A stretch of 64,000 nt of DNA, taken from positions 27,330,123 through 27,394,122 of the forward strand of contig CP154954.1 in NCBI GenBank assembly GCA_039621445.1. The letters are read 5' to 3'. Positions 58,901 through 61,900 of the stretch are shown in pieces. How positions within the stretch are numbered: position 1 is the stretch's first letter; every line of letters begins with the position of its first letter. The DNA comes from Euglena gracilis. Lineage: Eukaryota. Made by a program: the position numbers and the translations under genes. The notes beneath the pieces were generated by a model. The model was not told the origin of the DNA. It worked only from the letters and a program-made list of their open reading frames with translations, and ran no database searches.

Positions 58901-61900
58901 TACATACATAGAGCAAGGTGGCGCCTGCACCATATGCTGCACGCTCCTAAAGGCTGTTCAGTAGCGTGTGTGACCTCCTTTGGCCGCCAGCACGGCATGC
59001 ATGCGGGCAGGCAGGCTTTTGTACAGTTTCAAAACGGAGACCTGGGGTATCCCCAGGAATGCTTGCCTTATGGCCTCCCAAAGGGAGGTTTTGTTGCTGT
59101 ACGCCCGCTGACCCAGAATGCTAACCACTTGCGGCCAGAGGTTTTCAGTCAGTCTTCTGGTGCACGTGGCAGTTGTTGGTGGTGGGCAGCCCGGGGGAGT
59201 GGGGGGGGGGGCTGAGCGTATGAGCCAGACCTGACCGGAGCTACAGCAACAAAACTGCTGGAAATACGTCCCTTGAGCAGTTGTATTCACACACACACAC
59301 ACACCCACACCCACACCCACACCCACACCCACACCCACACCCACACCCACACCCACACCCACAAACATGTATAAAGCCGATTTTAGGAAAGGAATGTCCG
59401 TGCAGGTCGGAGCCCCTCTCCGCGACCACATTTCCCGGGCCAAATTGGCCAAATCCTGCCTTTGACCAAATATCCCTAATGACCAAACTGGCCAATCCCC
59501 CCCCTACCCTGCCCTAGGCAGGGTTCAGCCAGAAGACTGCATTCAATAACGTTCAGGTCAGGTGAGTTTGGTGGCCAGGCCCCGTTGTTGAACAACCTGA
59601 CACCCTTATCGTTCAGCCAGTCCTGTGTCGACCTGCTTTTGTGCACCGGTGTCCCATCTTGTTGGAATTGGTATTTGCTCGCCCTGAAGAGCAGAATTTG
59701 AAATCTACCGGCAAACAATCGTTTAGCTGCCCAATACACTGTCCCATCCGTTGGGATCGTCCAAAGTGTCATGATCTGAGCCATAGATTCATTTAACATT
59801 TGTGTGACTCCTCCCTCGTGGGTGGCTGGGTTTTCAAAAAAAAAGTAGGTGGGTGGGTTTGGGCCCCGGAAAAAGTCCCCCCCCCCCCAGGGGTCACTAA
59901 ATGGATCTATGGTGTGGGCTGCTATCAACGGAAAGGGGAGGATTGCATTTAGGAGGTGTCCAGAAACAGTGGATTCTGCAGCTTTTCAAGGAATTTTGAG
60001 CGACTCCCTCCATTTCATCAATCCTCGGTGTGCCCATCCTGTTTGCCGGTAGATTTCAAATTCTGCTCTTCAGGGCGAGCAAATACCAATTCCAACAAGA
60101 TGGGGCACCGGTGCACAAAAGCAGGTCGACACAGGACTGGCTGAACGATAAGGGTGTCAGGTTGTTCAACAACGGGGCCTGGCCACCAAACTCACCTGAC
60201 CTGAACGTTATTGAATGCAGTCTTCTGGCTGAACCCTGCCTAGGGCAGGGTAGGGGGGGGATTGGCCAGTTTGGTCATTAGGGATATTTGGTCAAAGGCA
60301 GGATTTGGCCAATTTGGCCCGGGAAATGTGGTCGTGGAGAGGGGCTCCGACCTGCACGGGCATTCTTTTCCTAAAATCGGCTTTACACATGTTTGTGGGT
60401 GTGGGTGTGGGTGTGGGTGTGGGTGTGGGTGTGGGTGTGGGTGTGGGTGTGTGTGTGGGTGTGGGTGTGGGTGTGGGTGTGGGTGTGGGTGTGGGTGTGT
60501 GTGAATACAACTGCTCAAGGGACGTATTTCCAGCAGTTTTGTTGCTGTAGCTCCGGTCAGGTCTGGCTCATACGCTCAGCCCCCCCCCCCTCCCCCGGGC
60601 TGCCCACCACCAACAACTGCCACGTGCACCAGAAGACTGACTGAAAACCTCTGGCCGCCAGTGGTTAGCATTCTGGGTCAGCGGGCGTACAGCAACAAAA
60701 CCTCCCTTTGGGAGGCCATACGGCAAGCATTCCTGGGGATACCCCAGGTCTCCGTTTTGAAACTGTACAAAAGCCTGCCTGCCCGCATGCATGCCGTGCT
60801 GGCGGCCAAAGGATGTCACACACGCTACTGAACAGCCGTTAGGAGCGTGCAGCGTATGGTGCAGGCGCCACCTTGCTCTGCCCATTGTGGCCCCCCAACC
60901 CATGGCACAAGGCATACGTTTAACCAAAGAAAAAATCATTTTTTATTTTTTTCGTTTGAGGGGTATAAAAACTTTTTTGGCACACTGTATGTATGTATGT
61001 CTGTATGTATGTATGTATGTATGTATGTATGTACGTATGTATGTATGTATGTATGTATGTATGTACGTACGTACGTACGTACGTATGTATGTATGTATTA
61101 TTTGTCAGCCTTAGTGGGACCCCCACAGGGGGTCCCACTTCGTTATGGAGGGGGTGGTGAGACACACCCTCCCCGGGTAACGAAGTGGACCCGGGGGGTC
61201 CCACTGGTTTAAGCAGGGGGCGGGCCCACTTTATTATGGCAAAAACACCGATTTTATCCGTTTGTTTTGTGTAGTTCTGGGAAAGTTAGGGTTATGTTAG
61301 GATTAGAGTTACGGTCAGGGATCAGGATTAGTGTTCAGATTTGGCTCAGATTGGTCCTAAATTCAGGCCCAAATGTAGGTCCAATTTCGGACTTTTTTTC
61401 GGGGCTTGAATTTGGGCGAACTGCCAAATTCAGCCAGAAACTCAAAATCCCAAAAACTCCTAAACCCAAACCCTAAACCCCATTCCTAACCCTGACCCTA
61501 TTGTGTGCCTTCACGGAATGTGAAATCAACCCTTTGTCGGGTTGACAGTTGGGCAGGACCGGGGTGTGGACCCATCAGGGGCAGGGGACAGAGGGGCGGT
61601 CGCTTTAAAAAAAATATATCCCTGTACCCTACTGGCACATTCCCCTCAATTTCTGACGTGCCGCCCATGGACCCCCCACCCCCCAGTGCGGTGGCACCGT
61701 CTCCCGCATCACCCTGACGGAGGGCCGGTGCATCACGGTGCGGCTGCAGCTGCCCGAGAAGGAGCTATCCAAGGCGGCTGCGGAGCTGGACTCGGTGCCG
61801 CAAGTCCTCCACATCCGGCGGGTCGTCAAGGTTGGCATTTGTGGGGCCGGTGGGTAGCAGATGGACGTCGTTTCGAAGTCAAATATCGACCTAAAAACCC

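Follow-up and report, generated by a model that had tools for sequence, protein, structure and literature searches.

A candidate nonconventional intron in the catalytic glutamate codon of a Tc1/mariner-type transposase from Euglena gracilis

In the window, i.e., the whole 64,000-nucleotide stretch of Euglena gracilis DNA analyzed here, a transposase frame of the Tc1/mariner type is interrupted by a 430-nt insert at 60215-60644, which splits ..SPDLNVIE from NLW.. within the catalytic Glu codon. We regard this insert as probably a real nonconventional (NC) intron of MITE-like origin, housed in a resident Tc1/mariner-type transposon. From features of the DNA, we infer both its origin as a mobile-element insertion and its removal from RNA, either now or formerly.

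Results

The transposase gene and its copies

The region contains the following features, with positions counted within the window.

58435..58610, strand not assigned: (GTAT)n microsatellite; together with its partners, (ATAC)n at 58741-58915 and (GTAT)n at about 60990-61098, it edges the rearranged copies
58613..58740, plus strand: detached transposon 3'-end fragment with a 25-nt internal duplication, then TA
58910..59717, minus strand: inverted truncated second copy, with part of the 46-nt intron, the exon, the insert (59145-59542), the last exon, and part of the 3' region
59906..60027, plus strand: transposase exon fragment, known from its translation, ending with the first two bases of Arg; it aligns to the relatives P0003, P0004, P0013, and P0021
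60028..60073, plus strand: conventional GT...AG intron of 46 nt, whose removal is needed to keep the frame
60074..60214, plus strand: exon with the second catalytic Asp (60099-60101) and the GA of the Glu codon; Pfam DDE_3 match
60215..60644, plus strand: candidate nonconventional intron of 430 nt, with N3 = ATG, CAG ... CTG, and N5 = ACTGA (code from PMC12501133)
60218..60228, plus strand: 5' stem arm CAGTCTTCTGG, which includes the CAG motif; paired in the MFE and centroid folds
60386..60510, plus strand: (GTGGGT)n-type microsatellite within the insert, of unequal length in the two palindrome arms
60629..60639, plus strand: 3' stem arm CCAGAAGACTG, which includes the CTG motif; paired in the MFE and centroid folds
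60645..60831, plus strand: last exon, with the third base of Glu, NLWPPVV...AAKGCHTRY, and the stop TGA at 60829-60831; it aligns column for column to the C-termini of relatives
60832..60987, plus strand: 3' untranslated part and transposon right end (...GGCACACTG), then TA

The exon at 60074..60214 was matched by 1237 library proteins at E<=1e-3, and its 48-aa piece aligned to Pfam DDE_3 over profile positions 86-123 of 146 (E 8.3e-6), with 26.2 bits against a cutoff of 28.6; the relatives P0003 and P0004 passed this cutoff, with 32.7 and 53 bits, respectively. The second Asp is separated from the Glu by 37 residues. This spacing agrees with the DD37E assignment made in the initial annotation, which can be followed for the two-thirds of the triad that are visible, the first Asp lying outside the window. 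The three window exons tiled without gap or overlap onto all ten aligned relatives. Moreover, the 46-nt GT-AG intron, also proposed at the outset, was confirmed, and four relatives have 13-20 extra in-frame residues exactly at its site.

The window gene copy is a dead relic: it is 5'-truncated and rearranged, forms a palindrome together with another truncated copy, and is unable to make transposase. On the plus strand, it appears to be truncated upstream near 59887, where an X10 contig goes on with other letters. The first catalytic Asp and the N-terminal DNA-binding domain are missing from both 5'-truncated copies in the window, which is a property of these copies and not of the family. The right end, ...CACTG and then TA, was seen at 60987-60989 and at 58740-58742; no left transposon end was detected in the 64-kb window, and no full-length member of the transposon family was seen. 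As the initial annotation had stated, the inverted copy carries the same insert. It lies at 59145-59542 on the minus strand, its junctions and stem are identical to those of the insert at 60215-60644, and it is 398 nt long because its microsatellite is shorter.

The insert and its borders

The border letters are ...CCTGACCTGAACGTTATTGA upstream, ATGCAGTCTTCTGG...CCAGAAGACTGACTGA at the two ends of the insert, and AAACCTCTGG... downstream. When 60214 was joined to 60645, a single open frame running through HTRY* was obtained and the homology was recovered, with ...GTTATTGA|AAACCTCTGG... as the predicted junction. The Glu codon is then GA|A, and the first description of an insert inside this codon was borne out, as its removal restores both frame and motif. 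The perfect 11-bp terminal stem described along with it, in the N3/N5 register, was also found: CAGTCTTCTGG (60218-60228) and CCAGAAGACTG (60629-60639) are exact reverse complements of each other, and the pairing goes 8 base pairs beyond the trinucleotides. At the 5' side, CAG (60218-60220) stands after exactly 3 spacer nt (ATG), in agreement with the 5' rule of the NC code. At the 3' side, CTG (60637-60639) is followed by the 5-nt ACTGA and then by the purine A at 60645, in agreement with the 3' rule. Collectively, ATG-CAG...CTG-ACTGA|A satisfies all the sequence rules of the code, 5'-N3CDG-/-CH'GN5-6|R. The whole-insert RNA fold was no better than those of shuffles (z 0.48); the terminal stem was nonetheless part of both the MFE and centroid structures.

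Since the borders share the 4-nt direct repeat TGAA, they can slide from -3 to +1 and yield the same mRNA, which gives five equivalent registers; N3/N5 is found in the given register alone. With N6 in place of N5, the acceptor base would again be a purine, but the frame would shift. These registers bear on whether the ordinary spliceosome could remove the insert, or whether it could leave as an 'intermediate' intron, in place of the nonconventional route. Hybrid introns are known from E. agilis (PMC12501133), where they make up 0.8% of the total. However, GT-AG, GC-AG, or AT-AC ends were absent from all five equivalent registers, and no pyrimidine tract precedes the 3' border of the insert, whose last 30 nt are AACTGCCACGTGCACCAGAAGACTGACTGA; this kind of removal is thus very improbable.

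Sequencing contigs and chance estimates

Contigs from 4 of the 24 listed public sequencing runs were compared with the window, with 32 of 1296 pieces listed and the insert microsatellite left out as a repeat. The 5' border of the insert was spanned by X1 record 1 (59898-60367), with 317 + 153 letters, and the 3' border by X6 record 31 (60594-60879), with 51 + 235 letters. Under the 31-letter rule, each border is bridged by only one listed contig; another nine of the listed pieces also run over a border, but their shorter side is under 31 letters. The initial annotation had held that, for a simply inactivating insertion, most genomic copies would lack the insert; this expectation was not borne out in the contigs of the four runs, where the insert was contiguous with the exons and neither a 60214-to-60645 joint nor an insert-free or spliced form was listed, although contigs lose rare variants and insert-free copies may exist unseen. 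No 'other letter' was listed at stem or spacer positions in these runs.

The four runs, which carry the label 'DNA?', look like DNA because the 46-nt GT-AG intron was retained as well (X1 record 1, X6 record 25, and X10 record 9), and they are consequently silent on splicing; if any of them were RNA, it would contain the unspliced form only. The share of query words was about 0.55 in the DNA-like runs, a value to be attributed to scattered differences and to the omitted microsatellite rather than to splicing, and 0.04 in six RNA runs, which has no bearing on splicing either way. A joint from 60190 to 60567, present in one X2 contig with a short side of 28 letters, was set aside, as it is off the intron borders.

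In 64-kb Markov simulations, about 4.5 pairs combining the code with an 11-bp stem were expected on both strands, anywhere within 3 kb, so the stem alone is not rare. For a stem whose code-defined borders exactly restore a conserved motif, the expectation derived from the simulations was roughly 1e-7. The code-plus-stem scan is inflated by the palindrome and homopolymers, and its use was confined to estimating chance and supplying candidates. An open-frame test on other stem elements was discarded as uninformative, since 58% of random removals equally keep the frame open for >=25 codons on either side.

It could be argued that the stem and register are a coincidence, or that the region is an assembly artefact, e.g., a fold-back chimera, with no biological meaning. 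Code-like stem pairs do arise by chance at the frequency given above, and a palindrome with microsatellites on its flanks, as found here, is something an assembler can produce. Nevertheless, both exon-insert borders were reproduced by independent short-read contigs from four runs, and a chance stem exactly restoring the motif is expected at the very low value just mentioned. Moreover, besides their difference in microsatellite length, the palindrome arms are 12 substitutions apart, indicating that they are not one read folded back. This explanation is largely refuted and, in our opinion, scarcely credible.

Relatives of the transposase

The ten aligned metagenomic relatives are more distant, with 37-54% identity to the first alignment row, and all ten read E-(H/R)-x-W straight through the insert site. 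This result indicated that the insert is specific to the subfamily found in the window. When the protein collection was searched with exon 3 and exon 2 as queries, no same-family protein, spliced or unspliced, was found, which is uninformative and does not count as counter-evidence. In the representative search, no close family member was present (best identity 65%), and the metagenome scan with exon 2 kept 80 loci of at most 60% identity, none of them same-family. Seventy of these 80 loci continue x-x-W without a stop; they were chosen via patterns that include SPDLNVIE, so this figure shows merely the usual uninterrupted state. An Rfam search of the window gave no match, and a literature search found no work joining Euglena, Tc1 transposase, and intron.

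Elements with CAG...CTG ends

The window holds at least six other elements with CAG...CTG ends and perfect 8-bp target duplications, and none of 20 simulated windows gave any. Some of these elements are clearly outside genes, and one sits in non-genic satellite, indicating that they land anywhere. Target duplications of 8 bp are made by hAT elements. In E. gracilis, Merlin families also have 8-bp TSDs, and their ends are described as starting with GG (PMC8101967); the duplication length is common to them and to the window elements, and the GG start is found in one window element only (8627-8912). Outside microsatellites, no further copy of the insert was found in the window except for the two palindrome arms.

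The 8-mers flanking the insert, ATTGAATG and ACTGAAAA, agree in 5 of their 8 letters, for which the chance P is about 0.027, and the three mismatches are all at spacer positions. The eroded 8-bp target duplication suggested in the initial annotation is backed by the perfect duplications of the other CAG...CTG elements, and the flank itself amounts to this partial match. The stem showed 0 changes in 22 nt and the flanking 8-mers 3 changes in 8 nt (hypergeometric P 0.014), a comparison biased by the definition of the stem as a perfect run and for this reason given no weight. In terms of length, 3 + 5 = 8: the register of the code takes out exactly the element plus one 8-bp duplicate, and this is what an exact reversal of such an insertion at the RNA level needs. 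PMC4770533 reports an NC intron of recent gain that has direct repeats of 8 nt. A literature search found no work linking hAT, Euglena, and nonconventional introns; the supplementary distribution of sliding distances in PMC12501133 may already contain an 8-nt class.

The same data have to be weighed against an inactivating insertion of a small inverted-repeat element, where a defective copy was multiplied in trans by intact, insert-free relatives, and the insert was never removed from RNA or the copies were never transcribed. In agreement with this possibility, the window copies are truncated relics, the TIR-like ends and the TSD-like 5/8 flank are as in the mobile CAG...CTG elements of the window, which can land outside genes, the more distant relatives are without the insert, and the spliced form was unseen in the contigs of the four DNA-like runs. 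On the other hand, the insert-free form was equally absent from those contigs, which can miss rare forms, and the borders agree with a code that was shown to suffice for splicing in Euglena, so any transcript arising in a Euglena cell should be processed. We consider an inactivating insertion unlikely. It shares its origin story with the NC-intron reading, and the two differ solely in the removal from RNA.

For an NC intron, a broader proposal can be put forward tentatively, as something possible rather than probable. NC splicing may be the exact RNA-level reversal of the insertion of CAG...CTG elements, with 8-bp duplications and a 3+5 register; the window would then contain both young elements and an old insertion, decayed to 5/8 but with an intact stem, and the Tc1-like family would have spread with the intron, its transposase being made only in cells with the NC system.

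Discussion

Genome editing in Euglena showed that the features of the NC splicing code are necessary for splicing and, when built into synthetic introns, suffice for it (PMC12501133). Splicing was lost when CAG or CTG carried a single change, or when the length of the 3-nt spacer was altered by 1 nt, and five out of five fully artificial introns built on the code rules were spliced from an unrelated gene (PMC12501133). Nonconventional introns are the majority class in Euglena, with 71.8% in E. agilis; hence, the presence of one in a resident Euglena gene is no surprise, such introns being ordinary in euglenid genes, and the insert is a tidy example of an already known intron type. The described euglenid NC introns, among them those of tubA, tubB, and gapC as well as EaNC-INT1 (Nomura et al. 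2025, PMC12501133), resemble it in having CAG at +4 to +6, CTG at -8 to -6, 3-nt and 5-nt spacers, a purine as the acceptor exon base, a terminal stem, no GT-AG ends, borders slidable via a short direct repeat, and a conventional intron in the same gene. Unlike these introns, the insert is known from DNA alone, and its host gene is a transposon transposase and not a cellular gene. With its 430 nt and an internal microsatellite, it also far exceeds the 50 nt of the synthetic introns that were tested; natural NC introns can reach thousands of nt, and known ones come out as circular RNA (PMC11282704).

Several DD37E families have been described (PMC5630946, PMC10379824). The Tc1/mariner DD37E elements TRT, Mosquito/MS, and L18 share with the window gene the 37-residue spacing, the SPDLN.IE..W motif, the right end ...CACTG followed by TA, and probably the DDE_3-type domain, whereas no first Asp, DNA-binding half, or left end is present in the window. 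The main text of the TRT paper (PMC5630946) has 0 occurrences of the word 'intron', whereas the window lineage combines a small, conserved GT-AG intron with the NC-type insert. A further parallel is provided by transposon-derived introns, i.e., the introner elements and MITE-like introns of Micromonas, dinoflagellates, and tunicates, which are likewise short, with inverted ends and a target duplication (reviewed in PMC11282704). The review indicates that the host RNA machinery removes the element, so a coding insertion is tolerated, and that these introns are removed by the spliceosome, with splice sites contributed by the element and the TSD. In contrast, the proposed removal of the insert would go through the separate NC system, and the receiving gene is itself part of a transposon.

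Under the NC-intron reading, a small element bounded by inverted CAG...CTG ends would most likely have inserted, with duplication of an 8-bp target, into the catalytic domain of the transposase of a resident Tc1/mariner-type transposon with the 37-residue Asp-Glu spacing. This gain would have taken place in the subfamily after its split from the distant relatives, and the insert would then have been carried along as the family multiplied. In the transcript of a full-length member, the 11-bp terminal stem would draw both borders together, and the host NC splicing system would cut 3 nt before CAG and 5 nt after CTG. Such a cut would take out the element with one target duplicate and rebuild the Glu codon GA|A and the motif, and the spliceosome would separately remove the 46-nt GT-AG intron.

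If the insert is spliced, it would be a datable, lineage-specific gain of an NC intron inside a multi-copy gene family, and the many paralogues would allow the selection on the stem, the spacers, and the decaying duplication to be measured, which is hard with single-copy host genes. It would also mean that a DNA transposon can come to depend on a host-specific, non-spliceosomal RNA pathway. Should the RNA-level reversal be true, the catalytic domain of a transposon would rely on a second, lineage-restricted pathway of intron removal. The 'control point' and 'transfer barrier' ideas of the initial annotation are speculation.

With the neighbouring CAG...CTG elements and their perfect 8-bp duplications, the 'MITE origin' hypothesis, now a decade old, can be stated in concrete and testable terms. 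If this origin is correct, a slide of exactly 8 nt is to be expected for young introns, together with a transposase that recognises CAG ends and generates 8-bp duplications. We also considered the insert as a derivative of its host transposon, and rejected this candidate: CAGT alone is common to the ends of the insert and the end of the transposon.

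Structure of the transposase gene and its insert

The sequences at 58800-62000 and 56400-58800 were read and contain a patch of rearranged pieces of one transposon family, edged by (GTAT)n and (ATAC)n microsatellites. The forward copy codes for the C-terminal ~150 transposase residues in three pieces, and the transposon terminates on its right in ...GGCACACTG, with 60987 as the last base and TA next to it. Neither copy in the window contains the left end, the first catalytic Asp, or the DNA-binding half, and transposase cannot be produced from either.

Features of the transposon patch
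58613-58740, + strand, loose 128-nt fragment of the transposon 3' end
58910-59717, - strand, inverted transposon copy
~59887-60987, + strand, forward transposon copy
59906-60027, + strand, transposase exon piece 1
60028-60073, + strand, GT...AG intron, 46 nt
60074-60214, + strand, transposase exon piece 2
60215-60644, + strand, insert, 430 nt
60645-60831, + strand, transposase exon piece 3, stop TGA

The initial annotation had described a stem-type intron splitting the catalytic Glu codon of a DD37E transposase, and this observation was confirmed. The insert is 430 nt long, joining 60214 to 60645 restores a single frame through the catalytic motif with the codon split as GA|A, and the terminal stem is perfect, CAGTCTTCTGG (60218-60228) being the exact reverse complement of CCAGAAGACTG (60629-60639). 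The 8-mers flanking the stem, regarded there as an eroded target-site duplication (TSD), are identical at five of eight positions (P 0.027), and the 46-nt intron and the 37-residue spacing from the second Asp to the Glu were found as described. An insert with identical junctions and stem is also in the inverted copy, as had been claimed; a shorter microsatellite accounts for its length of 398 nt. Moreover, the 4-nt direct repeat TGAA at the borders leaves five registers (-3 to +1) that give equal mRNA.

Comparison with the nonconventional intron code

The cis code of Euglena nonconventional (NC) introns was defined by knock-in mutagenesis (Nomura et al. 2025, PMC12501133), and consists of 3 spacer nt, CDG, a paired region, the complementary CH'G, and 5 spacer nt, after which the exon begins with a purine. 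In that study, splicing was lost with single CAG or CTG changes and with a 1-nt alteration of the donor spacer, removal of the pairing abolished function, an acceptor spacer of 6 nt worked less well than one of 5, and 5/5 artificial introns made to the rules were spliced. NC introns made up 71.8% of the E. agilis intron complement, and short direct repeats bordered 84.4% of introns (PMC12501133); the +4..+6 and -8..-6 motifs are also reported in E. gracilis (PMC11170887). The insert reads ATG-CAG-(8 further paired bases)...CTG-ACTGA|A and agrees with every rule of this code, sharing with Euglena NC introns the motifs, spacers, acceptor purine, pairing, and border repeat. Only one of the five equivalent registers is permitted by the code, and it is the observed one. 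Conventional intron ends are absent from all five, which argues against removal of the insert by the spliceosome, a very unlikely explanation. The terminal stem was found in both the MFE and centroid folds, and the 470-nt fold overall was not superior to shuffles (z 0.48). Code-like 11-bp stems are not rare, with ~4.5 expected per 64 kb in simulations, but we estimate the chance of one placed exactly at motif-restoring borders at ~1e-7. An origin by chance or artefact is very unlikely.

Relatives of the transposase

The 48-aa exon matched Pfam DDE_3 with an E value of 8.3e-6 (26.2 bits, slightly short of the 28.6 cutoff), and two of its nearest relatives passed this cutoff. Searched in full with HMMER, a set of 1.84 billion representative proteins gave 1237 matches at E<=1e-3, with a top identity of 65%, the nearest being unnamed products of short metagenome contigs. 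In alignment A1, the three exons tile onto these relatives with no gap or overlap, and the stretch from the Glu to (H/R)-x-W is uninterrupted in 10/10 of them, indicating that the insert is confined to the subfamily found in the window. Four metagenomic relatives (P0003, P0004, P0013, and P0021) carry 13-20 additional in-frame residues at the exact site of the 46-nt intron. The simplest reading is that these represent a small conventional intron, at a position conserved in this transposon lineage, that the gene caller translated; on this reading the GT-AG intron is old in the lineage. The last three of these relatives are 42-54% identical to P0003, and the translated 3' end of the extra residues resembles that of the window intron (..LFR).

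Published DD37E families include TRT, MS, and L18 (PMC5630946); the window element is DD37E-type by its Asp-Glu spacing and may belong to one of these or to none. Both the probable type of the insert, an NC intron, and the type of host, a DD37E-type Tc1-like element, are already known kinds.

Copies in sequencing runs

A search listed 24 public sequencing runs, 14 of which matched about half of the words; these 14 are contigs labelled 'DNA?', one of them 'RNA?'. We examined X1, X2, X6, and X10, through the 32 pieces listed of 1296. Record 1 of X1 (59898-60367) runs from exon 1 through the 46-nt intron and exon 2 into 153 nt of the insert, and in record 31 of X6 (60594-60879) the insert is continuous with the last exon. 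Among the listed pieces, nine more span one insert border, the shorter flank having fewer than 31 letters. The joint of 60214 to 60645 was not among the pieces listed for these four runs, whose contigs may miss rare insert-free copies, nor were differing letters in the stem or spacers. The sole listed joint, 60190 to 60567 in one X2 contig, misfits the insert borders; this contig drops 376 nt between the interior of exon 2 and the insert's 3' portion, and probably represents a family copy altered by deletion. Since the GT-AG intron is retained in the contigs as well, DNA is the simplest reading of them, so the insert belongs to the family in those runs and the contigs are uninformative on splicing. 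The main alternative to a spliced insert is that the insertion was never removed from RNA and that defective copies were amplified in trans, which we consider possible but rather unlikely. Four exon-3 codons read alike across the runs but otherwise in the window (P>Q, I>R, V>D, C>G), and two of the run residues, the G of the KGG.T motif and the D, are commoner among the relatives in alignment A1; the window copy is thus a decayed member.

CAG...CTG elements and the origin of the insert

The 'eroded TSD' remark prompted us to examine other stem elements from a code-plus-stem scan. Several elements in the window have CAG...CTG inverted ends (12-26 bp) abutting perfect 8-bp direct repeats; an 8-bp repeat with 10-bp inverted ends occurred in 0/20 simulated windows.

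CAG...CTG elements (perfect 8-bp repeats unless stated)
1595-1814, 7/8 repeat
8627-8912, ends GG-CAG
11971-12349
18389-20399
40069-40510
44575-46271, - strand, ends as in the 47937-49573 element
47937-49573

A 603-nt element (33292-33894) with 23-bp CAG...CTG inverted ends lies within a 21-bp satellite array (33000-35824), bordered on both sides by the 7-bp repeat GTGTTAT, and is clearly a non-genic insertion of the same kind. Together, these elements indicate that the CAG...CTG class is mobile and also lands outside genes. The code excises 3 nt ahead of CAG and 5 nt past CTG, that is, the element plus 8 nt, and removal therefore equals the element and one copy of the 8-bp duplication. hAT elements make 8-bp duplications. 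So do the Merlin families of E. gracilis, but Merlin ends are described as beginning with GG (PMC8101967), which holds for just one of the window's elements, 8627-8912. An origin of NC introns from MITEs has been proposed since 2014 (PMC3935182; also PMC6221363, review PMC11282704), and the recent gain of one intron, which carries 8-nt direct repeats, was ascribed to break repair (PMC4770533). In the literature searched, supplements aside, we found no statement that connects the 3+5 register with a duplication of 8 bp, and neither 'TSD' nor 'hAT' occurs in the main text of PMC12501133.

We favor the view that the insert is probably an NC intron derived from a mobile-element insertion. An element of the CAG...CTG class would have landed in a Tc1-like transposon already resident, within its catalytic region, and the transposon's transcripts would have been repaired at the RNA level because the element's ends and duplication fit the requirements of NC recognition. 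The transposon could thus have stayed functional and multiplied carrying the insert, with two broken descendants remaining in the window. The initial interpretation, that transposase production would depend on both host splicing systems, is supported in part; an obligatory intron would logically entail a point of regulatory control and a barrier against transfer beyond euglenids, two ideas that are speculative. A link of the insert to 8-bp duplications is suggested by the neighboring elements.

Rearrangement of the patch

Within 58400-61100, the forward and inverted transposon copies are arranged as a palindrome, whose arms are separated by 12 substitutions and therefore represent two real copies. 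Every breakpoint carries a (GTAT)n or (ATAC)n tract, and the arrangement points to inversion or repair at microsatellites, although it may be an assembly artefact. The inverted copy stops at the equivalent of 60879, and its lost 3' end is the detached forward piece at 58613-58740. The forward copy is apparently truncated or disrupted at ~59887, because an X10 contig equals the window over 59887-60087 and then diverges upstream, with letters that leave the translated transposase frame open. A C-rich repeat of very high depth also starts at ~59887. In run contigs, other family copies carry a 7-nt insertion, CCCATCA, at 60880-60886, the same spot as the break in the inverted copy.
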